DNA of 62,641 bases, filler included, from Candidatus Desantisbacteria bacterium CG1_02_49_89 (GCA_001871075.1; 5 parts of 5 records of this genome joined end to end with filler, not necessarily neighbours in it), one strand, 5' to 3'; counted from the first letter of the whole stretch, positions 1-45,182 are shown. Notes: a model not told the origin generated them from the letters alone. A program made the numbers and translations.

Positions 1-519
1 ACCCTGGGAAATAAATTTTTCCTGCACGCGAGATGCGCTGTGGGTCAGGGAGTGATCAAAAAAGTCTTTATTTTTAAGGACGGTATACCGAGGCAGGAAC
101 TGCCGCTTTCTCTCAGCACGGGATCAAGGACTGCGCAGGGCGAATATAAGCCTTATTTTTACGTGCAAAACACCGGGAAGCCGCAGTATTTCGAGGTCTG
201 CTATCCTCTTGAGAGCCCGGGTTATTACCACGTTCATGTTGAAACTTCGGGCGGGATACTTTTAAACCAGCCGATGCTTTATGACGTATCCAGCCCGAAC
301 AGCCACCAGATAAGCTACCTGCGCGCCGGAGATTCGGTGAATAACATTGAGATCAAGGGATGGTGCGAGGATATACCGCTGAATGAGGTCGGGAAGGACC
401 CGGGCTATAACTGCTGGTTCAGGAAGGACAGGGCGTGGGAGATGCGGGCGAGTTTCTCAGGCGTGGAATATAAACTGCGCGAAGGGACCGATCTGAGCGC
501 GTATTTCGCCGACCTGTAA
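1..519 (+). CDS. Hypothetical protein, 5'-truncated at window edge
   Basis: Frame is open from base 1 to TAA at 517-519; no recognisable motif. Confidence 0.6.
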   Translation, partial: TLGNKFFLHARCAVGQGVIKKVFIFKDGIPRQELPLSLSTGSRTAQGEYKPYFYVQNTGKPQYFEVCYPLESPGYYHVHVETSGGILLNQPMLYDVSSPNSHQISYLRAGDSVNNIEIKGWCEDIPLNEVGKDPGYNCWFRKDRAWEMRASFSGVEYKLREGTDLSAYFADL

Positions 520-631
520 TACCGTCATACGTCGTAAGTCGTACGTCGTTCGTAAATACTGTCATACATCGTAAGTTTTAAAGATTTATACGTATGACGT
601 AAGACGCACGACGCACGACTGTATTAATAAC

Positions 632-660
632 TTGACATTAGAGAGACTTTATGATATAAT
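632..660 (+). promoter_or_regulatory. Sigma70-type promoter for the large surface protein
   Basis: TTGACA-17 nt-TATAAT with TG extension. Confidence 0.75.
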
Positions 661-686
661 CTTATAAAAATAAATAAGTTATGACA

Positions 687-742
687 GCCCGCCCCGATTA
701 ATATCGGGGCGAGGTCTCGCCCAGACTTAACGTCTGGGCGGA
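687..742 (-). repeat. Double-hairpin miniature element, family A
   Basis: CGCCC..GGGCG-AGACC-TCGCCCCGAT-N5-ATCGGGGC; further copies at 10738, 16657, 40445, 41077, 42802, 51082 and a half copy at 61676. Confidence 0.8.
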
Positions 743-802
743 TTTAGTCAGTTCAGTCAGTTTCAAGACCTATTGTGAATCATGTATAATAACTTGACAA
801 TT

Positions 803-875
803 GTCTTTGCGAGCGACAGCGAAGCAATCTCGTTTTTAACGACGGGATTGCCGCGCCCTTCGGGCTCGCAATGAC
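803..875. repeat. GTC(A/T)TTGCGA...TCGCAATGAC palindromic element (RPE/REP-like)
   Basis: Long imperfect palindrome with GAAGCAATC/GATTGC core; related copies at 7359-7440 and 22985-23088. Confidence 0.75.
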
Positions 876-944
876 AGTAAAAAGCGTCAATCAATTAAGT
901 GAATATCAATAGATTTTGAATATGAATAGTTTGCGAGTTGGCCT

Positions 945-3900
945 ATGATAAAAAATAAAAGGATCTGTTTATGGGCGGTCGTGATATGGGGGCTGTTATT
1001 TGCATGGTCCCCGTTTTTATTCGCGGAAACCGAACCGATCACGGCCTGGATGAAAATCTATAATTCCGGGGCATATGACTAGGTTAATGGAATCGTTATT
1101 GATGATTCAGGATACATCTTCACGGTGGGCGTTTCCAACAGCGATATGATAATTATGAAATACGATTCGAAGGGGAATACCGTATCGAAGATCTTATGGA
1201 ACAACAGTCCCACGGATGGCGGCCAGGGCATAGCCCTGGACGACTCAGGCTGCATATACACGGTAGGCTATTTTTATAACGGTTCGGATGACGACTTTGT
1301 TACAATTAAATGGGATTCGTCCGGAAATACGATCTGGCAGAAAACGTATAACGGCGGGTTCGGCGACGACATGTACGGCGTGGCCGTTGATCCGTCGGGC
1401 AATGTATACGCGGCCGGTACCTCGAACAACGGCACGGATAACGACTGGTTTGTGATAAAATATAATTCCGGCGGTGACAGCATCTGGCAGAAGTCATATA
1501 ACGGGGGAGACCAGGACAACGCATTAGGTATTGCTTTTGACGGCAATACCGGTGTGTATGTTATCGGGTATTCGTACAACGGCCTGAACAACGATCTACT
1601 GCTTATAAAATACGATTCGGACGGCAATACGGTCTGGCAGAAGTACCATGACGGCGGGAATTACGATTACGGCCGCTGCGTTGCGTTTGACAGCCCGAGC
1701 TATGTTTACGCGGCAGGGTCATATAACAACGGCACTGATAATGATGTCCTGCTGATAAAATACGATACAAGCGGTAATACTGTCTGGGTAACAGCCTGCG
1801 ATTTTGGTTATGCTGATGCAGCGAATGCTCTATGTCTTGATTCCGAAGGCAATATTTACGTGGCAGGCAGCGCAAACAACAACTTCAATGACGATCTGAT
1901 AGCGATAAAATACGATACTTCGGGCAACACGCTCTGGGTGAAGAGATACGACAGTTCTTCTAATGACGCCGGGAACGGCATAGTTGTTGAGCGGGGCACA
2001 AAGGATGTGTATGTCGGGGGGTATTCAACCGCCTCGGATTTCGATTACCTCGTTTTAAAATACAGCCAGGACCCGGCGGTAAAATTCAGGATAACTTCCT
2101 CTCCGTTTACCGTGATGGCCAGCCACTATTCCAGGAGGGTGACGGTGGAGGCGCAGGACGAATCAGGGACCCTGGACGAGGATTTCAGTGAGTCCGCCTT
2201 CCTTGTGACTTCCTCGGCAGGCGGGGCTTTCTCCGCAAGCAACACGGTATGGCAGGATACCAGCCTGCTGCATTTTGTTTTTGGCACAGCTTCTTTTTAC
2301 TATAAAGACCTGAATACCGGTATGCCGGTAATTACGGTTTACCGTCCGGATATGATACCGGACGCCCAGACAGAAACGATAGTTCCCGCGGCTGCCAACA
2401 TAGACGCGCTGGGCAGCGCGATCAAGATCAGTTCGTATGCTGTTCCCGCGTCAGGTACGGATACCGCGATCGTGAACGTGCTCTTAAGGGATGGAAGGGG
2501 CGTTCCGATGCAGGGAAGGAGCGCGGAACTGTTTGCAAGGCGTGGTGATTCCACCACTGTTACTTCCAGCCCGCAGATAACCGATGTCAGCGGCTGGTGC
2601 ACGTTCTCGGTGTCTTCGGTTTATGCCGGTATTGAAACTCTCACTGCGGTTTGCGACGGCAATTCTATATCCAACTGTTTTTACTCGGGAGACGTGGTTT
2701 GCCTGCCATTCGAGGAGGTGTGGACAGGCACTCAAACTATGCACGATGCTTCAGGGCATGGCAATGACGGAACGCTCAGCGGGGTTACCGGAGAGATCAA
2801 CGGGCGTAATCTCAGTTACGCGGCGGTTTTCAACGGGACGTCCGATTATGTGAACATCCCGAATTCCGCAAGCCTTAATTCGCCGTCCCTTACCGTAGTG
2901 GCGTGGATTAAACCTACGGTACTGAGGATACAGGGCATTGCGGGCAGAACGCCCGCTACTGCTTCATGGGAACTCTACATGAGCGACGGCACGGGCCATG
3001 TTTCATTCAATGCTTTAGGGGCCTACCAGGTTGCGACTATTTCTACGGCGTTGCCCGGGACGTGGTACCACATTGCCGTGACCTATGACAGCACCGAGCA
3101 GAAGATTAAAATATTCTGGAACGGAGCGCCGGAATCTACTTACTCTTCAGTACCCGGCGCAGGCAATACGGCTGCCAATCCGGTTGAGATCTCCCACACG
3201 TCAACCAACAGGTTTTCCGGATCCATAGATGATTTTAAAATTTACAACCGCGCTCTTTCCGCAAGGGAAATACAATTTGAATACAAAGCCGGCGCTGAAA
3301 TATATTTTGCGTCAACAGCTTTGAGGATAACAACTCCCCAGCGCACTACCACTGCCGGGATACCATCTGACAGCATTGTTGTGCAGGCAAGGGACGCAAG
3401 CGGTAACGTAGACGCGCTTTTCGATGAAACTATCACGCTTCTGTCGTCATCCCTGAACGGACGGTTCTCGCTGTCTAAAATGCCCTGGTCCGGAACAACC
3501 GAAATAGTGCTTTCCAAAGGCCAGCAGGCTTTCTATTACAGGGACTGGGACACGGGCACTCCGGTGATCACGGTTTACCGCGCAGGTCTTGTGTCCAACA
3601 CGCAGGTTGTCATTGTCAACGAGCCCGCGGTTTCTGAAGCAGCTTCTTCGCTAAAAATTCACAACCTGGCTAACGGGAGGTCAATCGCGGACGGAGTTAC
3701 CCTGTGCACGGTCACTGTGGAAGTCAGGGGAGGCTTTGGAGAGACACTTGCAGGGAAACAGGTCACTGTTTATTCTTCCAGGGGCGCATCGTTTGACACA
3801 GTATCTTATCCTTTCGGACAGGTTACGGACGGGAACGGGATCTGCACCGCTTTCATCTGTTCGTCATATGCCGGTGAAGACACGATAACCGCGGTCTGCG

Positions 3901-5105
3901 ACGGAGTGACGATAGCAGAGAATATCATTAATAACCCATCCTTCGAAATTTATAACGGGTCCATAGTCAACTGGAGCTACAACACACCGACAGGTTTATG
4001 GTCGATGTCTACGGATGCCTACGACGGCATGGTATCAATATTTCACACCTGCGCCACAAGTTCGAATAACTATGCGGGTGTTTCCTGGCCCGGAAATACT
4101 TATACAAGCGTCTGGCCTGCCTACGCGGGTGACGGGTTCCTCGTATCCGGTTATATAAAGACGGATAACCTTACCTCAAGCAACACAGGCGCGACTTTCT
4201 ACTTATTAAATCACTCGGACAATATACCTTATGAGTTAGCTTATGTCGGTAACCTTACGGGAACCAATCCGTGGACGTATGTTTCAGGATATTTTACGGT
4301 CAAAATGCTCAGGAACGGGTTCGAGTTCAGGTGTATGAACGAGGGGATGGGCACTGCCTGGTTTGACGCTGTCCGCGTGCAGAGGATACCGACGCTGAAT
4401 TTTACCGCGGCAAGGCTGGGTTTTAGCACGCCGGAAAGGAGCGTGGCAGCCGGAGCAGTGTCTGAAAGCATTGCGATCGAAGCGTGCGGAGAGGCAGGCG
4501 GCAGGGATGTTACCTCGAATGACAAGGTCGAGCTTTATACGTCTTCAATTACCGGAAAATTCTCCGTATCCGACACGCTGTGGGTTGACGTGACGGCGGT
4601 TTTTCTGGCAAAAGGCTGCGCGGTATTTTACTACAAGGATTCCAATACCGGCAATCCCGTTATCACTGTTTCCCGTTCAGGACTGGCGATCGACACCCAG
4701 GCCGTCACCGTGAACACGCCAACTGCGCCGGCCCTGAATATCGTAAAGACCCTGGAAAATGTCAGGACAGGGGAGACCGGAGTTCTTGTCAGGGCCGTTG
4801 CCGGAGACACCCTTGAATACTGCTTAGATATCCTGAACACGGGAGACGAAACCATCACGGAGGCTGTTATCTGCGACACATGGGCTTTTGACACCTCGGT
4901 GAATAACCCTGTTATTTTTATCAGCATGGACACATTCCCTGCTGATTCCTGGGCCTACACCCTTGCCGGGAACCCTTCTGACACAGACTGGATAGCAGGC
5001 GAGCCTTCTTCCGGTTCAGAGGACATAAAAGGCCTCAGGTGGAGGATGGATTTTCTGGTCCCAGCGGACCCGAAAGCCATTAGGTTCAGGATAAAGGTAA
5101 AATAA
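945..5105 (+). CDS. Large secreted adhesin-like protein (signal peptide, SBBP-type beta-propeller repeats, invasin Big_1-like domains, LamG, CBM-like, C-terminal DUF11-like domain); in-frame TAG at 1080-1082
   Basis: ATG at 945 gives a signal peptide (..IWGLLFAWSPFLFA) homologous to that of the next gene; same frame as ORF 1125-5105; KYDSxGNTxW repeats; WYHIAVTYD..FSGSIDDFKIYNRALS LamG motif; GDTLEY..NTG DUF11-like motif. Either read-through or pseudogene. Confidence 0.8.
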
Positions 5106-5333
5106 GGATTCGCGAAATATTATATTGATATAACAGGAGTTAAACAAGTTAAGTTTAGAGTTAAGACTAAATAAGATTAGGCTTTTTAATTGATAAGATC
5201 AATATAGTTTAAGACCAGCCAATTGTTAGCCGGTAAACAGGCTAACAATATAATGAATTTTGGGTTAAACCAAAGATGGGTGTGCCATGTCTAATCTATT
5301 AAAACCGATAATTAGACATTGGTCTGTTTTTAC

Positions 5334-5634
5334 TGTGCGGAAATAATCAAAGGCGGACATAGGGAACAATCAAAAGTGAATATATCTGGGGGAAAATTAT
5401 TTAGACTCGCGGACTTGCAAAAAGCTAAATTAAGAGCAGTTTCTTATGGCAAAACATGTCAGAGGGGAGGGAATGGAAGGCAGGACGGTTTTAAAGGCAA
5501 AAGGCAATCCTCTGTGTTATCTCTAATGAAAGATTTGTTGTGCTTAAAGATGAGCAGAAAATCGGAGAGTACCAACTATGAGCGATGTGACATTTTAAGG
5601 TTCCCAAATGTGACATTTTGAATGTTGCGGAACA
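5334..5634. mobile_element. Internally deleted IS/MITE with TGT...ACA ends and ~16-bp target duplication (IS1202/ISNCY-like)
   Basis: Flanked by ATTGGTCTGTTTTT(AC) at 5318 and 5635; tandem TGTGACATTTT boxes near right end; no intact transposase. Confidence 0.55.
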
Positions 5635-5661
5635 ATTGGTCTGTTTTTGGTCTGTTTTTAC

Positions 5662-5689
5662 TTGACATTTAATAGTTTTATGCTATATT
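5662..5689 (+). promoter_or_regulatory. Sigma70-type promoter upstream of riboswitch
   Basis: TTGACA-16 nt-TATATT with TG extension. Confidence 0.55.
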
Positions 5690-5705
5690 ATATAATAGGC
5701 ATAAT

Positions 5706-5806
5706 AAGGGGGCAAACCCCGGGAAATCGGGGGACGCAAAACTTTACCCGTCAGGGGCACAGAATCTATGTTACGGAAGAGGCTAATAGTGAGCCAGTCA
5801 GGTGCA
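5706..5806 (+). ncRNA. c-di-GMP-I (GEMM-I)-like riboswitch
   Basis: GGCAAACC-CCGG-GAAA-TCGG-GGGACGCAAAAC matches the GEMM P2 tetraloop stem; GCCAGT near 3' end; lies between a promoter and a surface-protein gene. Confidence 0.7.
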
Positions 5807-5824
5807 TATCCGTATATATTAAAT

Positions 5825-6601
5825 TTGAGATCAAGAAATTTGTATATAACAGTCTTTATTATATGGGGACTAACCTTTTTATTTGGTTTGTCCCCATTTT
5901 TATTTGCGCAGACAGTGTCTGACACGCTGTCATTCGCCACGCTTAGTTCCTCCTGGGTTTGTGATGACGGTATTTCTGCCTGTACCGTATCAGTATATAT
6001 TAAAGATGCTTCAGATGTTGCCATACAGGGAAAACAGGTAACCCTGCAGTCCGACCGCGGCTCGCTCGACACGATCACCCAGCCTGTTTCCGTCACTGAT
6101 ACTTTTGGGATGGAAACAGGATGGATATGCTCTTCTGTTGCCGGAACTGCGACAATAACAGTTCTTTGCGACGGCAAAACTATTTCATGCTCCCCAGCAG
6201 GAACAATTCTTACTTTCGGAAGACCCATTATGGCTATATCAAAGATACTGAAAAACGTAAGAACCAATGAAACGGGTACTTCTGTGCCTGTAAATGCGGG
6301 GGATACCATAGAATACATTCTTACCGCGCAGAATACCGGCAACGAGACCGCTACCGATGCTGTTATCGTTGACACGAAAGCCTTTGATACTTTTACAAGC
6401 AACCCCGTTATTTTTATAGGTATGGATACTTTTCCCGCTGATACCTGGGCATACACGCTTGTTTCCAGCCCTTCGGATACCGAATGGATAGCAGGAGTAC
6501 CTGCTTTCGGTTCTGCCAGCCTGAAAGGCCTTAGATGGAGATTTTATTTTTACAGGCCGGGTTTGATCAACCAGGTGAAATTCAGCGTGAAGGTGAAATA
6601 A
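5825..6601 (+). CDS. Secreted protein, Big_1-like domain plus C-terminal DUF11-like domain
   Basis: Signal peptide ending SPFLFA; C-terminal ~125 aa closely similar to that of 945-5105; TTG start at 5825 preferred because ORF start 5768 lies inside the riboswitch. Confidence 0.8.
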   Translation: MRSRNLYITVFIIWGLTFLFGLSPFLFAQTVSDTLSFATLSSSWVCDDGISACTVSVYIKDASDVAIQGKQVTLQSDRGSLDTITQPVSVTDTFGMETGWICSSVAGTATITVLCDGKTISCSPAGTILTFGRPIMAISKILKNVRTNETGTSVPVNAGDTIEYILTAQNTGNETATDAVIVDTKAFDTFTSNPVIFIGMDTFPADTWAYTLVSSPSDTEWIAGVPAFGSASLKGLRWRFYFYRPGLINQVKFSVKVK

Positions 6602-6728
6602 TTTTAAATCATAAGGTAAAAGTCCCGCCTCAACGGCGGGTCGCCGAAGTGGCGACAAAATTCAAAATTAAAGAATAGGAAAAATGTAACTCAGGGCTTT
6701 AGCCCTGATTGTTTGAAAAGGAGATACG

Positions 6729-7292
6729 ATGAAAAAGATTTTAGCAGGATTGTTTATTGCCGGAATTCTGATGCTATGCGCAGGGGCGCAGGCAGCGGTG
6801 CAGAACATTGCCGTCGGCACGTTTAAGAATATGGCGGGAACTCCTTTTCCGGAAACATGTTCGGAGCAGGTAACGGCTGATATAGTGGGCCCTCAGATCA
6901 CGGTCACCAAGCTTCAGCAGAACGGAAGGACGGGGCAGTCCGGATCCGCGATTCTGGTCGCAAGCGGGGACACGATCATTTATACTATCCAGCTTTCTAA
7001 TAGCGGCACTGATTCCGCAACCGAGGTCGTGATAACCGACACGCTTGCCTTTGAAACGGTCGCAGGCCAGAGTGTGTTATACGAGACCAGCTCTGCGACA
7101 CCTGATACCGGCGCGGTATTCGCTGGCGGAATAGTAACAGCCCTTGAATACTATAACGGGTCGATCTGGCAGGGCACGACCTCAGGATTGATCCCGACCA
7201 ACGCAAAAGGCATCCGCTGGATTATAAATCTTGTGACATACGGCGCAAGTCTTTATAACGCCGGGTTCACGATAAAGGTCACAAGCCCGTAG
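6729..7292 (+). CDS. Small secreted DUF11-like protein (candidate pilus shaft subunit)
   Basis: AGGAG RBS, signal peptide ending AQA, ITVTK..GDTIIYTIQLSNSG..VITDT motif. Confidence 0.85.
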   Translation: MKKILAGLFIAGILMLCAGAQAAVQNIAVGTFKNMAGTPFPETCSEQVTADIVGPQITVTKLQQNGRTGQSGSAILVASGDTIIYTIQLSNSGTDSATEVVITDTLAFETVAGQSVLYETSSATPDTGAVFAGGIVTALEYYNGSIWQGTTSGLIPTNAKGIRWIINLVTYGASLYNAGFTIKVTSP

Positions 7293-7358
7293 TTCAATGA
7301 CAGATACTGGATATCAGATCCTGGATGCTAATACAAACGCATAAAATAACCTGATAGT

Positions 7359-7440
7359 GTCATTGCGAACGAACGAAGTGAGTGTGGCAATCTCGTCGTT
7401 AAAACCGAGATTGCTTCGTCGTTTCACTCCTCGCAACGAC
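7359..7440. repeat. RPE/REP-like palindromic element inside a 15-bp inverted repeat pair
   Basis: GTCATTGCGA...TCGCAACGAC; flanked by CTAATACAAACGCAT (7328) / ATGCGTTTGTATTAG (7451). Confidence 0.7.
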
Positions 7441-7510
7441 AAATTACTTAATGCGTTTGTATTAGTAAATACGTGACTTGTGAGCTTGTTAACTATTTCC
7501 TGCCCGCGCG

Positions 7511-7591
7511 TTATCTTATTAAAACAAACTTGCCTGTTGCAGGCTTGTTCCCGGTGGTGTTGGTGACAACGTAGAAGTACACGCCGCTTGC
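7511..7591 (-). CDS. C-terminal fragment of a protein with a T9SS/FlgD-like sorting tail
   Basis: Translates to ASGVYFYVVTNTTGNKPATGKFVLIR*; truncated by the contig end. Confidence 0.7.
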   Translation of the reverse strand, partial: ASGVYFYVVTNTTGNKPATGKFVLIR

Positions 7592-12117: not shown

Positions 12118-12843
12118 ATGAAAAAGGATAGATTAATATATATCGGGTGCGCGTGCATACTCCTGGCACCTGCGCTGTGCCGGGCAAACGTATCGATAAT
12201 ATCTTCCTCTTTCCTGGTAAGTTTCACGCTTGTGTCGGCTTTCAGGACAATGGGGAAATCGTATGCAGCCGTAGTTTTAATAGAAGCGCTTGTGCTGAAA
12301 CGGATCACGCCGGTCAAAATTCTTCCGGCGATCGGCATATCCGCCCTTTTAAATCTTATATCAACAGCGGTAGGGATCCTATACTTTTTAAGTTACAGCT
12401 CTAGTTTTTTACTTTTTATAGCCGCATTCATCTGCGCAGGATTGTTTCGTAATATGTGCGTCAAAGTATTGGGAATAGACGATAAGATGGAGCGGAAGAA
12501 AAGAAAAGTGATAGACATATTTCTTTATCTCTTTTTTTTCGGGCTGGCGATCCTTTCTGTTTTTCTGGGCGTGCTCGTAATGCCCGGACACAATTTATTC
12601 AGAACTCCCGCAGCTTATACCTCTCATGCCGAGTTTGTTACCGCGATCATCGCGGCAGTCCTGCTGTATCTGACCGGGTTTATCCTAACGGTAGTCATAG
12701 AGGGTTACTTCCTGAAGCGCATATTCCTGAAATACGCGGACAAGCCGCTTAAAACCGCGGTCCTTATGAATGTTCCGTCCTATATCGTGCTTTTCCTTAC
12801 CTCAATTTTTTATCTCTATAAGATGATCCCAGGTTCTTTTTAA
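12118..12843 (+). CDS. Multi-pass membrane protein, unknown function
   Basis: AAGGAG RBS; several hydrophobic segments. Confidence 0.75.
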   Translation: MKKDRLIYIGCACILLAPALCRANVSIISSSFLVSFTLVSAFRTMGKSYAAVVLIEALVLKRITPVKILPAIGISALLNLISTAVGILYFLSYSSSFLLFIAAFICAGLFRNMCVKVLGIDDKMERKKRKVIDIFLYLFFFGLAILSVFLGVLVMPGHNLFRTPAAYTSHAEFVTAIIAAVLLYLTGFILTVVIEGYFLKRIFLKYADKPLKTAVLMNVPSYIVLFLTSIFYLYKMIPGSF

Positions 12844-12953
12844 GAAAAGCTTGGGTGTCAGGTCTTCTCTGAAAATGTCAATTTAAAGCAGATAGCAGGT
12901 GATTTAGAAATTGATGGGGTAGATCAATTTTGGCTGACAAAATCATTTTTTCC

Positions 12954-12982
12954 TTGACATTATAACAAAATTGTTATATAAT
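12954..12982 (+). promoter_or_regulatory. Promoter with overlapping palindromic operator of the TA pair
   Basis: TTGACA-17-TATAAT; TATAACA-N4-TGTTATA at 12961-12978. Confidence 0.8.
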
Positions 12983-13004
12983 ATATAGCAGAAGATGAAG
13001 GCAA

Positions 13005-13367
13005 ATGTATACGATAAAGTATTACAGGACTGCTAACGGCAAAGAATTGGCAAGCGAGTGCCTGAACGGCTTGAATTTAAAAGCAAGAGCGGCCTTCAGA
13101 AAAAGACAGGGGCTCCTTGAGAAAGGCCTGCTGCCTTTCAAGTGGCCGTACGTAGGTTATCTTCGGGATAAAATATATGAATTCAGGGTAGAGATAGAAA
13201 GAAATACTTACAGGATACTATTTTTCTTTGTTTTTAAGAATTACATGCTATTTACGCATGCTTTTATGAAAAAAACCGATAAGGTCCCGGATAACGAGAT
13301 TGAACGGGCTTTAAGATATAAAGCTGATTTTGAAAATAGATACAAAAAAGGAGAGTATGAGCTATGA
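13005..13367 (+). CDS. RelE/HigB-family (Gp49-like) toxin
   Basis: IYEFRV..YRILFF..HAFMKKTDKVP..EIERA motif; toxin-first order. Confidence 0.88.
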   Translation: MYTIKYYRTANGKELASECLNGLNLKARAAFRKRQGLLEKGLLPFKWPYVGYLRDKIYEFRVEIERNTYRILFFFVFKNYMLFTHAFMKKTDKVPDNEIERALRYKADFENRYKKGEYEL

Positions 13368-13660
13368 AGAAAATTAAACTGACTGGTTTTAAGGAATGGG
13401 AAAAAGAACAAATGAAAGATCCGGAATTTGTCAAGGCTTGCGAAGAGCCCGACGACGATCCTTTCATCGAGACGACCTGGCAGCTGCTGAAATTAAGAGA
13501 AAAAACTGGCCTCACACAGAAGGAATTCGCAAAGAGAATGCATGTTTCTCAGGAAGCTATTGCAAGATTGGAGTCTCCCCGTTACCGAGGGTATTCCCTG
13601 CAGACTTTGCATAAAATCGCGCATACCTTTGATAAAAAACTGCAAATTAGATTTATATAA
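13364..13660 (+). CDS. HigA-like XRE HTH antitoxin
   Basis: LREKTGLTQKEFAKRMHVSQEAIARLE; ATGA overlap with toxin. Confidence 0.88.
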   Translation: MKKIKLTGFKEWEKEQMKDPEFVKACEEPDDDPFIETTWQLLKLREKTGLTQKEFAKRMHVSQEAIARLESPRYRGYSLQTLHKIAHTFDKKLQIRFI

Positions 13661-13781
13661 CCATGCAAATGCAGATTGCTGAAAATTGGGGATAGGGTAC
13701 TTTTCAGAAGTCTGAAAACCCGTTCCACCTCGTAGGTGGTATGGGTACAGATTCAGGGCTGGGAGAGTCAGGGAGAATAAT

Positions 13782-14597
13782 ATGAAAAGAATAATATCGT
13801 ATAGCATCCTGATATCGGGATTGGCATTTACGAGTCTCTCCTATGCTTTCTTTGTCGGCTTCGGCGCATCAGGCGGGGCGGAGCAGGTGATAATAAAGGG
13901 CCAGGATGCGGGGGTGATTCCGAAGATCTCAGGTGAAAGTCTGCCACCCGGCGGCCCTAAACAGCTTACAAATGCAGAAACTGTGTGGCAGAAAATATAT
14001 GATAGCGGAAATGATGATTGTGGCTACGGCATTGCAGTCGATGATACTGGTAATGTTTACGTAGCAGGAAGTTCATATGTTGGCTCAACTGCTGATTTTC
14101 TGACAATAAAATATGATTCAAATGGAAATTCTGTTTGGCAGAGAAGATATGATGGTGGATGGAGAAGAACCATAATTTTTACATCTAATTCCTATGCAAT
14201 GGAAACAGAAACTACTGCTGCGGTAGTGGATTTAGAAGCAGGCGAGGGGATATCAAAAGGAACGGTGATGGCTCTCTCTGACTATCTCCGTGCCCAATTA
14301 TTTAATTCTCAAAGATTCACTCTTGTGACGAGAGAGAATATGGAACAGATTTTGGAGGAACAGCAATTTCAACTATCTGGATGCACAAGCCAAGAATGTA
14401 TCATCCAAGTAGGTAAATTATTGAACGTGTGTAAAATGTTCGCCGGTTCTGTGGGAAAGGTTGGTGCCACCTATGTCATTGCATTAAAAATTATTGATGT
14501 TGAGTCTGGAAGGGTTGAGAAAATAGAAACCGAGGAATGTCCCAGGTGCGAAGAGGATTCGTTGCTTATTTCTATTAAAAACATTGCTAATACCTGA
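13782..14597 (+). CDS. Chimeric secreted protein: conserved leader, SBBP repeat fragment, CsgG/FlgO-like domain
   Basis: Signal peptide; KYDSNGNSVW repeat; TRENMEQILEEQQFQLSGCTSQECIIQVGKLL motif. Confidence 0.7.
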   Translation: MKRIISYSILISGLAFTSLSYAFFVGFGASGGAEQVIIKGQDAGVIPKISGESLPPGGPKQLTNAETVWQKIYDSGNDDCGYGIAVDDTGNVYVAGSSYVGSTADFLTIKYDSNGNSVWQRRYDGGWRRTIIFTSNSYAMETETTAAVVDLEAGEGISKGTVMALSDYLRAQLFNSQRFTLVTRENMEQILEEQQFQLSGCTSQECIIQVGKLLNVCKMFAGSVGKVGATYVIALKIIDVESGRVEKIETEECPRCEEDSLLISIKNIANT

Positions 14598-31725: not shown

Positions 31726-32421
31726 TTATTCCGGCACCAAAGACTTCCTGGGCCGTCCTCTTCCCTTAAACTTATCGGTTACCCCGAACAATTCCTCCAT
31801 CTGCGCGGTGAATTCTGTGTTGCCGTAGAAATACCTTCTTGTAACAGAAGGATCGCTTTCCCTTTTCCAGCTTTCTTTTGAAAGCACGAAATCCCGGTAC
31901 AGCTCCTTCCTTATCTTAAGATCATTCGAGAGCCCTTCATAAGCCGGCTGGGGATCCAGCAGCTTATTGACGCTGTCCTGGGTATAGAACCTGTAACTGC
32001 TCCAAAGATAGTCTTCCGGCTTCTGCGCCATCCCTGCCCTTACAGGATTTAATTCAATGTACGCGGCGCACTCAAGCAGATACTCGTCTTTGCTTATAAG
32101 TATGCTCTTAAACCTGTCCTGCCAGAAATGGCCGAAGTGCTTGTACTTCTTCTTGTAATACTGGGCGTATGACAGGTTCAAAAGCTTCATTGCTTCAGAA
32201 AGGCTTGCCTGGCTGTCCGTTATTTCAATGATCAGGTGGACGTGGTTGTCCATCAGGACGTAGTGGTACAGCAGGAACTTGAAGCGGTCTTTGCACATTT
32301 CCAGGACTTCCAGGTATTCAAGAAAATCCCTTTCATCGTGGAATACGTTAACCTTATTGTTGCCTCTTGTGATTATATGGTAAACGCCCTCATGGTTGAA
32401 TATCCGAGCTGCTCTTGGCAT
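31726..32421 (-). CDS. REP-associated tyrosine transposase (RAYT-like, Y1 HUH superfamily)
   Basis: YHIITRGNNK, YVLMDNHVHL (HUH), FWQDRFKS, YIELNPVRAGM, YLWSSY, GRPRK tail. Confidence 0.92.
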   Translation of the reverse strand: MPRAARIFNHEGVYHIITRGNNKVNVFHDERDFLEYLEVLEMCKDRFKFLLYHYVLMDNHVHLIIEITDSQASLSEAMKLLNLSYAQYYKKKYKHFGHFWQDRFKSILISKDEYLLECAAYIELNPVRAGMAQKPEDYLWSSYRFYTQDSVNKLLDPQPAYEGLSNDLKIRKELYRDFVLSKESWKRESDPSVTRRYFYGNTEFTAQMEELFGVTDKFKGRGRPRKSLVPE

Positions 32422-37105: not shown

Positions 37106-38266
37106 ATGGCTGAGCAGGTAGGTTATGAACCGGAAGAGCTGATCCAACACGCGGTTATTCATTTCAAGAAGCGGCGTTATGCCACAGCCCAGCTGTTCTG
37201 GTGTGTTGCTCTTGAGAACTATATCAGGAAAAAGTTCATAGGGATAAAAAGGAAGGAGCCGGAAGACGATGACACGATAGGTTCTATGTTAAAGCAGATC
37301 AAAGAGGTAAGGGGCCCCGGTGACTGGTACTCGAAAAATCAGGATATGCTCTGGAATTTCGTCAGGAAAAGAAATGATATAACGCACAGGTCGTTTATTT
37401 CAGAAGAGAAGGAACTGAAAAGCCTGCTCGAAGGCCTTGTGGCGTTAATAAGCGGAAAGACCGAAGAATTAGACGATATAATAAAAAGGGTTGATCCTGA
37501 ACTGACTACAAGGCTTGGGCTTAAGTTCCATGACCGCACAGAGCCGGACAAGGAGCTGCTTAAGAAGCTCGAGACTATTTCTGCCGATGATTTTAACAGG
37601 GATGATTACGCGTTTTCATTGATCATATGGAGATTAAAGGAAATAATTGACAATATACTGAAAAACAAGGCTTCGGAAGACAGGAATTTCAAGGGTTTGA
37701 CAACAGGCCTGGTTTCCGAGTTCACGGTCAGCAGCGACTGGATATGGCTTCCAGTGGGTTTTGGCATAGAAAAGGAGAACAAGAGGGTAAAGAAGCCGAT
37801 CATCAGTGTTATGCTGATCCGCAACAGGACCGCCAGGGTCTACCTTGACTTTGGCACAGAGGCAACGCCTTACAGGCGCAAATACTACAGCCTTTTGCAG
37901 AGTGACCCGGCTTTCAAGGATATGTTCAGGGAATTATGCGATAATTGCCCTGATATTACCGAGTTTTTCAACGTGGAGCATTACACGGTCATCCTGGAGC
38001 AGGAGAAGATACCTATAGGAAAATGGCTTAAGGGTGATCCGGCTTGCTGCGAAAGCGTGAGCAGGTGCATAAGAAAGGCAAGGGCGATCCTGGATGGCCT
38101 GGAAAGCCAGAAAAGGAACGAATGGCGCGACAACGTCCTGCTTTTCGGCAGGAAATTCAACCAGGACTATTTCACCCAGCCGCGCGAAATCGAATCTTTT
38201 GCTTCCGATATAATCAATGTTATCGAGTTGCTCCTTCCATTTCTGAAAGCAATTGAAGCTAATTAG
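37106..38266 (+). CDS. Hypothetical protein with N-terminal HEPN-like domain
   Basis: A..W.VALE..RKRNDITH (R-x4-H) helical N-terminus; C-terminus unrecognised. Confidence 0.65.
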   Translation: MAEQVGYEPEELIQHAVIHFKKRRYATAQLFWCVALENYIRKKFIGIKRKEPEDDDTIGSMLKQIKEVRGPGDWYSKNQDMLWNFVRKRNDITHRSFISEEKELKSLLEGLVALISGKTEELDDIIKRVDPELTTRLGLKFHDRTEPDKELLKKLETISADDFNRDDYAFSLIIWRLKEIIDNILKNKASEDRNFKGLTTGLVSEFTVSSDWIWLPVGFGIEKENKRVKKPIISVMLIRNRTARVYLDFGTEATPYRRKYYSLLQSDPAFKDMFRELCDNCPDITEFFNVEHYTVILEQEKIPIGKWLKGDPACCESVSRCIRKARAILDGLESQKRNEWRDNVLLFGRKFNQDYFTQPREIESFASDIINVIELLLPFLKAIEAN

Positions 38267-38435
38267 TTAATAATGTAGCCTTTCCGGCTATTTTGCAACA
38301 TTAAAGGCAGGGATCAGGTATAATATATATACAGGGCCATAAAAGCCCAAAAACTGGTAAAAAGCGAGGATTTAAGGACCAACTTGCCCCGGCTTGAACA
38401 GGGCGCTAAAGCGGAGACATCCCGGATTCTTTCCT

Positions 38436-38466
38436 ACCCGTGCTTTGGCACGGGTTTTTTGTTTTT
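38436..38466 (+). terminator. Leader terminator/attenuator upstream of the hypothetical-AAA-Clp run
   Basis: ACCCGTGC-TTTG-GCACGGGT-TTTTTGTTTTT ending ~17 nt before ATG 38483. Confidence 0.7.
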
Positions 38467-38482
38467 CCGGGAAGGAGAAGGT

Positions 38483-39268
38483 ATGAGCGAGAAGCTGGAG
38501 ACAGAGGTGGTGCAGGGTTTCAATACCCAGGACGGCAAAGGGATCAACCATTTGGAGATCGGGGGCAAAAGGTTCCTTGTGGCTGAGGACCTGGCCGCAG
38601 AGGAAGAAACGCTGGTCGCTAAGGTGAAAATGATGGAAGAAGGGGCAAGGACGATCTCTTTCCCGGTTGACACGCTTTCCATAGACGGCGAAAAGAAGTT
38701 CTTCACCGTCAGGATAAGCGTAAAATGGGATGATTACAGGTGCGTTCATGGCGTGAGGTGTTATTCCAGGGGCAAGCTGATGTACAGCACGAGCATCTGG
38801 TGCATGAGCGCGAAAATGATGGGCCTGGTTTCCAGGGCGGAAAAAAACTGGCCGCTTTTCTTCAAAGTCGAGGATAAATACGTCGCGTGCCTGGCCTGCA
38901 AAGCCGAGTGGCTGGAAGTCTTTGTTTTCGACAAGCTTATTTTGAAAAAACCGGAGAATTTCGAAGAACTGCCTTCCCGTTTCAGCGGGGGTCATTACCG
39001 TTTCGGCGGGATCCAGGAGGAAAGGCGGGGATTATGCTGGACCGCGTATACCTTTATAAAAGGAAAGCCCGCAAGGCTGTATTATTTTAAATATCCAGGT
39101 TTTATGTGGAGAAGCGTTAACCTGGCCCACGGCAGGGAGATAATTGACTACAGCCAGGATGAAAAGGATTACACCCAGGTCAAGGCCCTGGAGCCGTCGT
39201 TTGACACCAGCGCTGAAGAGCTGGTCGTTAAATCAGGGGATTCTGTTGAAAGCGTTATTTGTTTTTAA
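38483..39268 (+). CDS. Hypothetical protein
   Basis: AAGGAG RBS before ATG 38483. Confidence 0.7.
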   Translation: MSEKLETEVVQGFNTQDGKGINHLEIGGKRFLVAEDLAAEEETLVAKVKMMEEGARTISFPVDTLSIDGEKKFFTVRISVKWDDYRCVHGVRCYSRGKLMYSTSIWCMSAKMMGLVSRAEKNWPLFFKVEDKYVACLACKAEWLEVFVFDKLILKKPENFEELPSRFSGGHYRFGGIQEERRGLCWTAYTFIKGKPARLYYFKYPGFMWRSVNLAHGREIIDYSQDEKDYTQVKALEPSFDTSAEELVVKSGDSVESVICF

Positions 39269-39280
39269 AAAGGGGAAACC

Positions 39281-39775
39281 ATGAAAATGAAAAATGGGGG
39301 AACGGGGTTCAGGGTGCCTCGCGAAGTGGTTGATATCCTGGGCTTAAAAGCCGATAAAAACGAGCCGGATAATATAACCGGGATAGGCGCGCGGGACCCG
39401 TTCAACAAGGGCGTGATTTGCAGCATTTACAAGTTCTGCGCGTATAATGAGATAATACTGCCGGTTTGCCCGGGCAGGCATCATTTTGAGTCAATCGACG
39501 CTTTCAACGAAACCAGGAGAAAGAAAGGGTTAAAGACAGTGGGATTTAAAAAGTGGCTGAGGTGCTTTATCCATCGCAAGAAAAAGCATAATGAATATAT
39601 CCTGGGCGCCAGGGCCATGGAGGAAAAGCCGGGCCGCTTCAGGATAGAAACGCTGAAGAAGATCGCAGCCTGGCTGCGAAGGACATACGGCGTAAAAGCC
39701 GGGGTTATGAAACCGGAAGTAGAGGGCGCGTTGCTGGATCTTCTTGAATGCCCTTTACCAGGATATTTTGAGTGA
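39281..39775 (+). CDS. Hypothetical basic protein
   Basis: AGGGG RBS; 12 nt after the previous gene. Confidence 0.65.
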   Translation: MKMKNGGTGFRVPREVVDILGLKADKNEPDNITGIGARDPFNKGVICSIYKFCAYNEIILPVCPGRHHFESIDAFNETRRKKGLKTVGFKKWLRCFIHRKKKHNEYILGARAMEEKPGRFRIETLKKIAAWLRRTYGVKAGVMKPEVEGALLDLLECPLPGYFE

Positions 39776-39790
39776 AGTCAAACGATAGCT

Positions 39791-40195
39791 TATTGCCCCT
39801 GCAGCTGCTCATGATCCCCCCTACTTTTTTTCGAAAGTGACAGGGGGGACCTACAAGCCAGAGTAGTATTTTGTCCCTGTAGCCCCTTCGGGGCTTAATA
39901 CAGGGATTTTCGAGTCAGAACGAGGCAAATGACTCTTCAATCGATGGCTCTTCGGCGCAGGGGCCTGCGCGCCAGAATCCTGCCAGCTCCAAAAGAGCTC
40001 AACGGCAGGACCTACGAATCAGAACGGAGCTGATGATTCTCCGGCTGGGTGAATGGTAACCTATTGCCCCTGCAGCTGCTCATGATCCCCCCTACTTTTT
40101 TTCGAAAGTGACAGGGGGGACCTACAAGCCAGAACTTAGACGATGGCTCTTCGGCGCAGGGGCCTACGCGCCAGAGCTAAGCGGATGGCGCTCCG
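39791..40195 (+). repeat. Tandem, recursively nested family B elements
   Basis: ~72-nt direct repeat (39791/40062) plus six CCTWCG-like linker/stem-GARC modules. Confidence 0.85.
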
Positions 40196-40206
40196 GGGAG
40201 TTAAAA

Positions 40207-40386
40207 ATGGAAGAGAAAGAAGAACTTAAGTGGTATACCGGATTTTTAGACCTGGTGATGTTTTTTATGATAGTGGTAATAGGCTTTTTCTCCAGTTTCA
40301 AGCACGTGTATAACCTTATATACGGGGAAGGCAGGAAAGAAGTTATAAGGGAAATGAACAAAAGGAAGGCCAATAATTCTGATTAA
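40207..40386 (+). CDS. Small single-TM protein
   Basis: GGGGAG RBS; hydrophobic FLDLVMFFMIVVIGFF. Confidence 0.55.
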   Translation: MEEKEELKWYTGFLDLVMFFMIVVIGFFSSFKHVYNLIYGEGRKEVIREMNKRKANNSD

Positions 40387-40552
40387 TCCGGCGCAGGATA
40401 TAAGGCGCAGGTTCTTTTTTGGAGCGGGAAGCTGCTGAATAAATTGTCCGCCCGTCTTTTCAGCGGGCGAGACCTCGCCCCGATAGGCAACCGGGACTGC
40501 GGGACAAAAGTCAAATTGCAAATTGTAAAATGAACTGCAGAGAGGAGAGAGA

Positions 40553-40987
40553 ATGCAGAGGGAGTTTTATAAGGTGGTGGTGGAGAACTTCGGGAAGCTG
40601 GTTTCATATATCTTTTACATACCGCGGATGACGGTTGAATACAAGGTTGGGGAGTGGGTGAAACCGAAGATTGAGAATACCAGGCTATTTGTTTTTGATA
40701 CTTTTGCGTCAGCCTTGGAAGCCACAAAGCTTCAGGGAGGCATAGCTATTTACAAATGCGAAGCTACAGACCCTGTGCCCATAAAGTTCGTTGTAAGGAC
40801 CTCTTACATTACCCTGCAGCCCAACCCTGATCCCAAGAGTGAAGAGCCGGGAAAGCTAAGCAGGAAATTCCTGGATTACTGGGAGAAAAGGAAATTTGAC
40901 GCGGATGAAGGGGAATGTTCGGCGGAATGCCCGGCAGGGACGCTGGGGGTGGGGGCGGTAAAACTGCTGGAACAGTTAAAGAGTTAA
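40553..40987 (+). CDS. Hypothetical protein
   Basis: GAGGAG RBS; 144-aa ORF. Confidence 0.7.
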   Translation: MQREFYKVVVENFGKLVSYIFYIPRMTVEYKVGEWVKPKIENTRLFVFDTFASALEATKLQGGIAIYKCEATDPVPIKFVVRTSYITLQPNPDPKSEEPGKLSRKFLDYWEKRKFDADEGECSAECPAGTLGVGAVKLLEQLKS

Positions 40988-41140: not shown

Positions 41141-42490
41141 ATGAGAGAGAATAATGGGAATGGGATGTACAAACCTTTTGTCGCGATAGATCTGCCGCGC
41201 CTTGATATCAATAAGTCTTTCCTGGGATGCGAAAAGCTGTCTGAAATAGCAGAGATAAGAAGGACCTACCCGCGTATCTTAAAGGAAATAATAGGCATAA
41301 TCCTTGAAGAGCTGCTAAGGACCGAATACAGGCAGTTTCTCCCGGATATAAGGATAACGGAAAATCTGGAAAGATCGGTCAGGGATTACCGTTTGATAGA
41401 TATGGGCGGCATGAAATTGCGCTTCGCGGATACCGAGGCGATGTGGTGGTCAAAGCCACTTGGGATGGTTTTTGACGGGGACATATGCAAGGCGGACTAT
41501 CCCATTGTGGAGGGTTTGCTTTTGATATCAAAAGACAACTGCAGGCTCAAGATAAACATTGATTCGCGCGGAGATAATATTATGCATATTATGGCAACGG
41601 TCACCCGCGATAATATTGAGAACGCACTTAAATTTTTTTCCGAAATAGAGAAAGGATTGAGCCGGACAAAAGGCGTTTTTGACGGTAACGGACAAAGGAT
41701 AACGATAGCCGGAAAACGCGGCTGGGAAGAGGCGGTATTGAGCAGGCAGATAATTGAAACGATAGAATCCCAAGTCTTAGGATTTATGAAGGAGGAAAAC
41801 CGCGCGTTTCTTGCCGCCAACTCCATACCCATAAAAAGAGGTTTGCTGTTCTACGGGCCCCCGGGCAACGGCAAGACCCTTACAGGAAAGATAATCGCAA
41901 ACCAGACAAAAGTCTGCTTTATACTCTGCACCAACAAGAACTTCGTTTCCGGTTGGCGGGATGACGATTTAATCCGGATATACAAATTTGCAAGGGTTAT
42001 TTCACCTTCGATAGTTTTTATTGAAGACATTGACCTGGTTATAGGAGAGAACACGCACAGGCTGGGAACACTACTCCAGGAACTGGACGGGATCGAGGAG
42101 AACGAAAACGTGATAACGATCGCCACAACGAACCACCCGGAAGCCATAAACGAGGCGCTGGGAAGGCCTGGAAGGTTTGACATAAGGATTGAGTTCCCAA
42201 ACCCGGACTTTGAAACAAGGATCAAGCTCCTGAAGCTTTTCACAAAGAACCTGGTGCTTGACAGCAGCGCCGATCTTGGGGAAACAGCGGAAAAAACAGA
42301 GGGCTTCTCGTGCGCGGCCATGAAGGAGGTTGTCACGCGCAGCCTGGTAACGGCATATGAAACAGGGTCTGTTACAGACGGAAAGGTGGTTGTCGGGAAA
42401 GAGCACCTGGAAAGAGCTGCTGAGTTCGTGCAGAGGGTGAAAGGGATGATAGGGTTTACCGCGGACGCTGAACCAGCCCATAGACCATAG
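41141..42490 (+). CDS. Classical-clade AAA+ ATPase with uncharacterised N-domain, C-terminal IGF
   Basis: GPPGNGKT, VFIEDID, TTNHPEAINEALGRPGRFD. Confidence 0.9.
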   Translation: MRENNGNGMYKPFVAIDLPRLDINKSFLGCEKLSEIAEIRRTYPRILKEIIGIILEELLRTEYRQFLPDIRITENLERSVRDYRLIDMGGMKLRFADTEAMWWSKPLGMVFDGDICKADYPIVEGLLLISKDNCRLKINIDSRGDNIMHIMATVTRDNIENALKFFSEIEKGLSRTKGVFDGNGQRITIAGKRGWEEAVLSRQIIETIESQVLGFMKEENRAFLAANSIPIKRGLLFYGPPGNGKTLTGKIIANQTKVCFILCTNKNFVSGWRDDDLIRIYKFARVISPSIVFIEDIDLVIGENTHRLGTLLQELDGIEENENVITIATTNHPEAINEALGRPGRFDIRIEFPNPDFETRIKLLKLFTKNLVLDSSADLGETAEKTEGFSCAAMKEVVTRSLVTAYETGSVTDGKVVVGKEHLERAAEFVQRVKGMIGFTADAEPAHRP

Positions 42491-42612
42491 TCCATTGTCC
42501 ATAGCAGGATTAACTTACTATTGCAAAAGTCAAATTTTAAATTGCAAATTGCAAAAGTTTAAGTTCAAGCACGAGATTTTAAAAGGGAACTTAAGAGAAC
42601 TTAAATTACTTT

Positions 42613-42682
42613 GCCCCCTGCGGGTTTCTGCGAAACCACAACGCTGGGGCCTACGAACCAGAGCTGGGCCGATGGTTCTCCG
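42613..42682 (+). repeat. Family B element
   Basis: CCCC..GGGG-CCTAC-GAACCA-GAGC-N6-GA-TGGTTC-TCCG then GCACGGATTT. Confidence 0.75.
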
Positions 42683-42866
42683 GCACGGATTTGCACGGAT
42701 GAATATCTTTTAGTTTTTAAACTAATGACTAATGACTGTTTGCAGCGGAATGGCGGTGAAGCGAGTATATATTATAGAGAGGAGCACGCCACTGAACCTA
42801 CTGTCCGCCCGTCTTTTCAGCGGGCGAGACCTTGCCCCGATGGGCATCGGGGCGCGGGAGGATATA

Positions 42867-44306: not shown

Positions 44307-44514
44307 CCAGTGTCCAGTTACAGATTGAAAGACATTTTGAACAGGGAACCCTCCACCAAGATCGGCGGGCAGGCTTAAGAGAACTTAAAAAGATTCAGCC
44401 ACGGATTTGCACGGATCTTAACCTTTAATCCGTTAATCTATTAAACCTTTAATCAAATATTTTACTCATGACACATGACTCATGACGCGTGACTGTATCT
44501 AAAGGGAGGGAAAG

Positions 44515-45099: not shown

Positions 45100-45182
45100 G
45101 GGATTAACTAAAAACATTTCAAATTGTAAATTTCAAATTGTAAATTTCAAATTGAAATAAATTTCTTAAACAGGGAGACGCC

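Follow-up and report, generated by a model that had tools for sequence, protein, structure and literature searches.

BsaA of Clostridium perfringens, a member of the TasA family, is assembled by a mechanism termed 'donor-strand exchange and lock': an N-terminal segment of one subunit enters the sheet of the next one, and N35 and K74 become joined spontaneously by an intermolecular isopeptide bond whose formation is catalysed by E56 of the acceptor (PMC11580942). Donor-strand fibres have also been modelled for the haloarchaeal Tat-fimbriae, the subunits of which are DUF1102/TasA-like and not DUF11 (PMC11821415). DUF11 itself, renamed 'CLIPPER' in 2025, is represented by the crystal structure 9IFR, in which nine strands form a CnaA-like sandwich and an isopeptide bond beside Asp748 connects Lys715 and Asn806 intramolecularly (PMC12617251). 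Here, a locus in the metagenome-assembled genome (MAG) of Candidatus Desantisbacteria bacterium CG1_02_49_89 is described, in which domains of this family seem to be divided between separately encoded secreted proteins. The locus makes up the whole contig C10 (positions 1-7591) and is part of a 62.6-kb stretch of DNA, hereafter referred to as the window, in which five contigs (C10-C14) of this MAG (G000; 2.48 Mb, 150 contigs, 93.5% complete) are placed end to end, separated by N runs. We estimate with a probability of roughly 55% that strand complementation in trans, probably locked by Lys-Asn isopeptide bonds, links tip adhesins, stalk subunits and outer-membrane anchors in this organism. With regard to the mechanism, BsaA would then be the nearest described system, the bond in trans being in the present case a prediction drawn from sequence.

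The original prediction, made from the DNA alone, had proposed three co-oriented genes for proteins with a common C-terminal domain, and this stands. Three open reading frames (ORFs) at 1125..5105, 5768..6601 and 6729..7292, all on the plus strand, encode proteins whose last ~130 residues can be aligned (alignment A1) with 34 invariant columns, among them Lys, GDT, Y, N.G, DT and W. In the following, these proteins are called big, mid and small; their truncated domains are denoted acceptors and the N-terminal Asn-containing segment of the small protein is denoted donor segment or tag, in line with their predicted roles. The genes and domains are:

945..5105, plus strand: big protein, putative tip; interrupted by a TAG, the uninterrupted ORF comprising 1125-5105
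4719..5102, plus strand: domain of the big protein that is acceptor-only ('catcher') and comprises strands 1-7 of CLIPPER, with Lys in NIVK, Asp in ICDT and the end FRIKVK
5768..6601, plus strand: mid protein, in which a signal peptide and one Big_1 domain precede a truncated CLIPPER domain, without an N-terminal Asn motif
6215..6598, plus strand: acceptor-only domain of the mid protein, with Lys in AISK and Asp in IVDT
6729..7292, plus strand: small subunit, 187 amino acids (aa), consisting of a signal peptide, the donor segment and an acceptor domain
6795..6893, plus strand: donor segment ('tag') of the small protein, residues 23-55, AVQNIAVGTF (Asn26) and a second strand
6894..7289, plus strand: acceptor domain of the small protein, residues 56-187, with Lys61 and Asp104

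The big protein is composed of a signal peptide (signal peptides were assigned by eye), SBBP beta-propeller repeats, a Laminin_G_3 domain, two Big_1 domains and the truncated CLIPPER domain at its C-terminus. Its signal peptide begins at 945, and an in-frame TAG at 1080-1082 cuts off the remainder of the gene. Because the sibling protein P0156 (1386 aa) possesses Gln (CAG) at the matching codon and the big ORF is intact in the sibling metagenome contig L042 (1386 aa; L042 4217-8377), the TAG of the window copy is a nonsense variant or an assembly/consensus error. The mid protein comprises 277 aa when counted from an ATG and 258 aa from a TTG at 5825. The TTG is the likely start, since the resulting signal peptide resembles that of the big protein. 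Of the lengths originally given (1386, 258 and 187 aa), the last one is correct, while the second holds only for the TTG start and the first requires read-through of the TAG. As had been noted, all three proteins end within 0-2 residues of an F.(I/V)KV strand. A search with a hidden Markov model (HMM) of the tag detected the N-terminal Asn motif within the window solely in the small protein. The big and the mid protein are devoid of a tag, as expected for tip subunits without an N-terminal extension, and can be regarded as acceptor-only, which is in agreement with the earlier assignment.

Within the shared domain, the big protein is 58% identical to the mid and 30% identical to the small protein (A1), and a search of the own genome with the small protein recovered the other two at E values of 2.0e-11 and 2.2e-11. 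The DUF11 repeat model TIGR01451 (cut-off 24) yielded 36.6 bits for the small, 25.1 bits for the mid and 16.6 bits, and thus a value below the cut-off, for the big protein. Pfam DUF11 (PF01345, cut-off 24.6) matched the small protein with 25.8 bits. The matches cover only the N-terminal half of both models, and the sister families DUF7619, DUF7507 and DUF7927 matched the shared domain more weakly. Judged by these profiles, the module belongs to the DUF11/CLIPPER family of CnaA-like isopeptide domains (9IFR, PMC12617251); a CnaA-like fold is probable, in place of the CnaB-like one that had been supposed. An AlphaFold2 (AF2) model of the small protein (mean predicted local distance difference test score, pLDDT, 76.3) was matched to 9IFR by Foldseek (prob 1.00, E 9e-3, target-normalised TM-score 0.55) and by VIA-align (Z 7.5, root-mean-square deviation 2.5, 93 residues). 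On the sequence level, a search of the PDB with the profile of the small-protein family (A3) gave no matches at E <= 0.01, and P0025 matched only PKD/collagenase-type and SdrD-type domains in this database, not 9IFR. An exhaustive HMMER search with the small protein revealed 1066 proteins at E <= 0.001. Among the best 150 of these matches are 147 proteins of 640-6763 aa, mostly with many matched stretches, and three small full-length relatives. The homologue search limited to the C-terminal domain of the big protein returned its own cluster only, and 562 matches to a pattern (A2) searched in genome contigs contained no relative.

To determine where the acceptor domains end, a clean 146-residue tandem DUF11 unit of P0006, the closest giant, served as reference repeat. 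An alignment of 11 acceptor domains (A4; eight from G000 and three from G001, a related genome of the same order that is 87% complete) was placed by hhalign with its columns 23-126 on unit positions 16-106 of 146 (Prob 93%, E 2.8e-7). The strand with which the acceptors terminate, IRFRIK, falls on VTFSVT, i.e. strand 7 of the unit. Positions 107-146, which contain the Asn strand (TITNTAN) and the last strand, have no counterpart in the acceptors; the proteins stop there. According to these profiles, the acceptor domains stop after strand 7 and are without Asn strand and last strand. A CLIPPER domain unites its nine strands, including the one with the bond-forming Asn, in a single chain, whereas position 106-108 of the 146-residue unit is the last one reached by the acceptor profile. 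By its Pfam coordinates, a second, shorter domain type is truncated as well: a 195-aa protein ends at position 84 of 114 of DUF11 and a 179-aa protein at position 100 of 133 of DUF7619. In both families, the bond-forming Asn sits late (PMC12617251, Table 1).

The alignment of the small-protein family (A3; eight sequences, down to 36% identity) fits another register of the tandem unit, namely the one in which the Asn strand comes first. Columns 23-124 were placed on positions 15-105 of this register (Prob 96%, E 3.7e-9), and the alignment is unbroken from the first mature residue, A23, to residue 124, with A-V-Q-N26 on T-I-T-N. Therefore, the mature small protein has the extent of a single repeat period whose ends lie in the strand 7-8 loop. 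The donor segment, which was also matched to repeat junctions in HMMER alignments, is by profile homology equivalent to strands 8-9 of the tandem DUF11 unit. The claim that the Asn strand is missing from the acceptors and present at the N-terminus of the small protein is thus supported by the hhalign profiles, but two strands and not one are concerned. On the level of sequence profiles, the locus shows the arrangement typical of donor-strand exchange, i.e. a subunit without its C-terminal strands combined with a matching N-terminal extension.

The operon continues beyond the window. Contig L042 is identical to C10 through the repeat that follows the small gene and contains beyond it two more small-subunit genes and the start of a fourth tag-bearing gene. 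The three small paralogues are distinct, with 66-70% identity where measured. The mature N-terminus encoded by the fourth gene reads V-S-N-Y-V-G-C-S-Y. This gene was located on contig C75 of the own genome (99% identity of protein and DNA), where it is represented by two overlapping ORFs (1375-2691 and 2634-3356; 438 and 240 aa; L043 276-2257), probably because a single gene has been split by a frameshift or an error of the assembly. The second ORF ends in a type A sorting domain of a type IX secretion system (T9SS; TIGR04183, 28.5 bits, cut-off 23). Such tag-bearing proteins with a sorting domain are termed anchors here. Downstream of the C75 anchor lie genes for a CARDB protein, a FecR-like protein, a 630-aa SlpA_C-like barrel and, four genes past the anchor, a PorV/PorQ-family protein (198.4 bits, cut-off 90). 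As reconstructed from the sequences of these contigs, the extended operon comprises the big and the mid gene, three genes for small subunits, an anchor gene with tag and T9SS sorting domain and a PorV/PorQ-family barrel gene.

Similar sets of genes are present elsewhere in the genome. Type-1 domains occur in 14 ORFs; they are terminal in 11 of them (277 to 5280 aa), cut by the contig end in two and internal in one. The internal copy (C140, 796 aa) is followed in cis by an Asn-containing segment, and the protein ends in a truncated type-2 domain. The tag profile matched nine ORFs, in each of which the tag is positioned directly after the signal peptide; as eight of the nine were training sequences, this search demonstrates only that no further matches exist. 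Three proteins (C140 5491-6801, C28 5684-6958 and C112 3816-5096) carry the tag after the signal peptide, and no acceptor domain was found in them among the own-genome domain matches. They possess the sorting domain CHU_C (PF13585, cut-off 27), with 29.6 bits for the C140 anchor, 27.9 bits for the C28 anchor and, in the own-genome search, 37.7 bits for the C112 anchor. The AF2 model of the latter was poor (mean pLDDT 44.5, the tag region being coil at pLDDT 22-31), and nothing firm was drawn from it. In the type-2 anchor gene of C28 (L025 5684-6958), a short N run (X) lies inside the sorting domain.

The survey of neighbourhoods that had been suggested along with the original prediction yielded two other clusters with the same layout in the own genome. 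On C140, a giant with a truncated end is followed by two small tag-plus-acceptor genes, an anchor gene and a gene for a PorV-like barrel fused to OmpA. C80/C28 contain genes for small acceptor proteins, tag-plus-acceptor subunits, an anchor and a PorV/PorP-like barrel. A small subunit, of which only the start is encoded at the end of C80 (15567-15758), is nearly identical to the one at the end of C28 (7139-7639). The two contigs probably abut and would then form one cluster with three or four small DUF11 proteins, anchor and barrel. Neighbours within the clusters are PorV/PorP-like barrels, an OmpA fusion, a FecR-like protein and a SlpA_C-like barrel. A chaperone or an usher was not obvious in the clusters, a search for PapD- or usher-like families not having been made. 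The comparison sample consisted of 40 other genomes, of which one (G001) is of the same order as G000, while the others have only the taxonomic domain in common with it. In G001, three giants end in the truncated domain; a 729-aa CHU_C protein of this genome has no tag. That acceptor-only, donor-plus-acceptor and donor-only proteins all exist and are found together in three clusters is on sequence grounds hard to explain unless the donor acts in trans.

Lys61 and Asp104 are invariant in all eight members of the small-protein family. Conservation of the Asn had been named as a check of the proposal: the tag position is occupied by Asn in 6/8 and by Asp in 2/8 sequences of this family, and the tag Asn is invariant in 9/9 sequences of the anchor family, which were aligned down to 23% identity. 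Of 19 copies of the domain in the own genome, 17 have retained Lys and all 19 Asp. Two types of tag can be distinguished, VxNxAxxT[YF] (type 1) and IxNxCT[GS]x[YF] (type 2), and the types of tag and acceptor co-vary cluster by cluster.

On the basis of these patterns, the locus may represent the front part of an operon for a surface fibre or for adhesin display, built on a split CLIPPER domain. The acceptors would contribute strands 1-7 as the last domain of their proteins, strand 1 bearing the conserved Lys and strand 3 the catalytic Asp, and the donors would provide strands 8-9 with the conserved Asn, directly past the signal-peptide cleavage site. Anchors would contain only the donor segment, followed by the T9SS-type C-terminal sorting domain. 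The acceptor-only big and mid proteins would be situated at the distal end, whereas the small proteins with donor and acceptor (one encoded in the window and another two in the sibling contig) would function as stalk or adaptor. At the cell surface, the chain would be terminated by the anchor, which is encoded beside a PorV/PorQ/PorP-like barrel. Wherever two chains join, they would together make up a complete CLIPPER domain, and because the Lys-Asp-Asn triad would be restored by this, a spontaneous intermolecular isopeptide bond may be expected to lock the junction without a sortase. The topology might thus be that of a tandem-repeat adhesin stalk cut in pieces: a tip, stalk or adaptor subunits and an anchor at an outer-membrane barrel. 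That the segments bind in trans and become covalently joined is inferred, and the same holds for the chain's polarity, its length and the way in which its parts cross the outer membrane. A free-standing fibre does not fit, as the system ends in outer-membrane anchor proteins with T9SS sorting domains.

SpyTag/SpyCatcher is an engineered split isopeptide domain, in which the Asn/Asp strand has been separated and the bond re-forms in trans. DogTag/DogCatcher is said to be an engineered split isopeptide pair as well. It is possible, and we advance it tentatively, that the genome encodes natural counterparts, i.e. a CnaA-like domain gene-split at the strand 7-8 loop, by which secreted proteins self-ligate head to tail and enzyme-free, so that ~12 giant adhesins would be covalently mounted on few shared stalks and T9SS-type anchors. 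If this were true, it would constitute a plug-and-lock route to cell-surface diversification, and cargo without an export signal could leave the cell riding on the sorting domain of the anchor. The known pairs are laboratory constructs derived from Gram-positive CnaB or RrgA domains, whereas the split would here be natural and reside in a CnaA-like domain.

The same complementation in trans might, however, serve a docking in one or few steps, possibly non-covalent, in which a giant would sit on the anchor directly or via one to three adaptors and no shaft would be formed. The gene numbers are in line with this idea, since acceptor-only proteins (~11 full type-1 copies) outnumber the nine tag-bearing ORFs in the genome, and the three small paralogues, due to their divergence, look like adaptors and not like one major pilin. 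Two acceptors without Lys would also be compatible with non-covalent docking. On the other hand, a subunit with tag and acceptor could in principle self-polymerise, and the strong conservation of Lys, Asp and Asn argues for a covalent bond at most junctions. Docking without a shaft is therefore considered rather unlikely.

Still more improbable is the assumption that complementation in trans does not occur. The small protein would then be a circular permutant, whose hairpin folds onto its own domain, and the truncated domain of the giants would be a lineage-specific module for sorting, secretion or wall docking, e.g. a new T9SS-type C-terminal domain. A conserved immunoglobulin (Ig)-like domain at the extreme C-terminus of many unrelated giants is a hallmark of a sorting signal, and many T9SS-type C-terminal domains, a SprA-like ORF and PorV-family barrels are present in the genome. 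Moreover, the AF2 monomer has the N-terminal hairpin as strands (22-33 and 39-50). The second of these ends at residue 50 and strand 1 starts at 57, but the ~6 residues between them are reminiscent of a repeat junction, and such a linker is, by comparison with domains of beads-on-a-string stalks, probably too short to reach the far pole of the protein's own domain. A global MAFFT alignment, in which the ends are forced together, can place the segment IRWIINLV of the small protein on the Asn strand. By contrast, local hhalign sets this last strand on strand 7 of the unit, not on 8 or 9, and the Asn position in cis is occupied by N or D in only 5/8 small-family and 6/11 acceptor-family sequences, versus Asn/Asp in 8/8 and 9/9 sequences at the tag position. 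IRWIINLV was thus rejected as Asn strand in cis. The existence of tag-only proteins, without an acceptor in cis, in three clusters and of giants without an equivalent of the tag also speaks against this assumption. Finally, it is very unlikely that the truncated domains are decay products or assembly artefacts without a joint function, i.e. broken tandem-repeat adhesin genes in a fragmented MAG, as the 150 contigs, the TAG in the big gene, the split fourth gene of C75 and the repeat-induced branch at the contig end might suggest, since the same end point and stop codon recur in 11 ORFs of the own genome, three of G001 and independent metagenome contigs and since signal peptides precede the tags exactly.

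Several points weigh against linkage in trans by split CLIPPER domains. Z values of 7-8 are typical of generic Ig-like matches, and BcpA and macroglobulin-type domains scored about equally well as 9IFR. The donor strands of the AF2 monomer reached pLDDT values of only 52-72 and are compatible with folding back in cis. The tag alone matched the repeat unit with an E value of 0.048, being too short for significance, and the tag of the anchor family was not detected by hhalign. Acceptor copies on C98 and C71 are without Lys; therefore, a covalent bond could not form at all junctions. The connection of C75 to the window depends on the sibling contig and not on the MAG itself. Furthermore, no tag-bearing small or anchor protein was found in the 87% complete genome G001 with A3, A5 and the type-2 small protein as queries. 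No signal for export across the outer membrane is recognisable in the acceptor-only and small proteins, in contrast to the anchors. Regarding the T9SS machinery, the genome gave no match for GldM, for which the control did not respond anywhere either, and the catalytic part of PorU was not found, only sorting-domain matches being obtained.

Candidates for other T9SS components were detected. CHU_C had 20 matches in the genome at E <= 0.01, of which 14 are over the cut-off, and a second PorV/PorQ-family protein besides that of C75 reached 178.7 bits. A 1660-aa ORF on C60 is SprA-like, with five collinear pieces matching TIGR04189, each below the cut-off. The search for GldK yielded generic matches only, which appeared in the controls, too. 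A reduced or divergent T9SS may exist in this candidate phylum outside Bacteroidota. If the proteins are indeed linked in trans, the question arises how tips and stalks are exported that have no recognisable outer-membrane sorting signal, while the anchors have one.

The genes past 7591 are not neighbours of the locus, because the window consists of separate contigs joined by N runs. The true neighbourhood on C10 comprises only the three genes described above and a fragment of an upstream gene. The remaining features are:

1-519: fragment of an upstream gene, no Pfam family matched
632..660, plus strand: sigma-70-like promoter of the big gene, TTGACA, 17-nt spacer, TATAAT; 12/12, a consensus match only
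5662..5689, plus strand: sigma-70-like promoter of the mid gene; 11/12, a consensus match only
7293..7465: palindromic repeat 3' of the small gene, similar to repetitive extragenic palindromic (REP) elements, ~170 bases; the assembly branches here
7466..7591, minus strand: assembly branch, last 126 bases of the contig; differs from the sibling contig and matches the end of C79
7592-7691, 14688-14787, 25054-25153 and 34998-35097: paired N runs at the contig joins; adjacency across them is not real

The spacer ahead of the big-gene promoter (520-620) contains short tandem words (cgtcatacgtcgtaagtcgtacgtcgttcgtaa...). An identical copy of the REP-like repeat is present in the sibling contig, and copies are also located at the start of C21 and the end of C79. 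The reverse strand of 7466-7591 encodes the tail of a sorting-domain-like C-terminus. Genes for IS200/Y1-type transposases lie at 31726-32418 of the window and on C80 of G000 (12754-13752). A DnaA_C-like helix-turn-helix is fused to the copy on C80, and this copy may be the enzyme of the RAYT type (REP-associated tyrosine transposase) behind the REP-like repeats. On contig C11 (window 13782-14594), a 271-aa protein combines an SBBP repeat with a CsgG-like segment (PF03783, E 1.7e-6), which is an unusual pairing. Contig C14 harbours two AAA ATPase genes, clpP and a ClpX/ClpB-like AAA_2 gene in consecutive order (window 41141-46796), preceded by several ORFs without a Pfam family (37106-40984).

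If the proteins are linked as proposed, a sortase-independent, self-ligating system for fibre formation or adhesin display would exist in outer-membrane bacteria, built from the very common stalk domain DUF11/CLIPPER, for which only intramolecular bonds have been described to date. It would also be explained why the same orphan half-domain ends many giant proteins of this candidate phylum. For protein engineering, naturally evolved, mutually specific tag/catcher pairs would become available, with two types in this genome alone. In the literature outside subscription journals and supplements, no published split DUF11/CLIPPER domain and no DUF11 donor-strand fibre was found.

The domains of the locus and CLIPPER/DUF11 (9IFR, PMC12617251) belong to the same family by their scores, probably match in fold and have both the Lys on strand 1 and the catalytic Asp, and CLIPPER also occurs in long surface adhesins of Gram-negative bacteria (PMC12617251). 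However, 9IFR unites nine strands and the triad in one chain, whereas the chains studied here end after strand 7, and other proteins carry the Asn strand and the last strand at their N-terminus. BsaA differs by its TasA/camelysin-like fold, its Gram-positive host, its homopolymeric nature and a secretion linked to SipW and a type IV pilus. Separate classes of tip or anchor proteins are not described for BsaA, and the BsaA mechanism has mutational support, unlike that of the present system (PMC11580942). Instead of a TasA-like fold with an N-E-K triad, the locus encodes DUF11/CLIPPER domains whose triad would be Asn-Asp-Lys, so that the likeness is one of mechanism only.

With chaperone-usher pili, the locus would share a tip adhesin whose N-terminal part is functional and whose C-terminal pilin domain has no extension, several minor subunits and a terminator or anchor (PMC11821415). 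In these pili, however, one strand is missing, a covalent bond is not formed, and a periplasmic chaperone and an usher are required (PMC11821415). The archaeal thread Saci_0406 likewise combines donor-strand complementation with proposed intermolecular isopeptide bonds without a known sortase (PMC9715654). By contrast to the bond predicted here, the N-terminal amine of Asp24 is joined to Asn57 of subunit n+2, and the thread is a homopolymer of unrelated fold from an archaeon (PMC9715654). T9SS proteins with a type B C-terminal domain are reported to be held by PorP-like proteins (PMC9143113). The anchors of the present genome resemble T9SS cargo, as they bear sorting domains of the CHU_C or the type A kind and their genes lie next to those of PorV/PorQ/PorP-like barrels. 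While known T9SS cargo proteins are single polypeptides, the displayed part would here be a separate protein, attached via a split domain.

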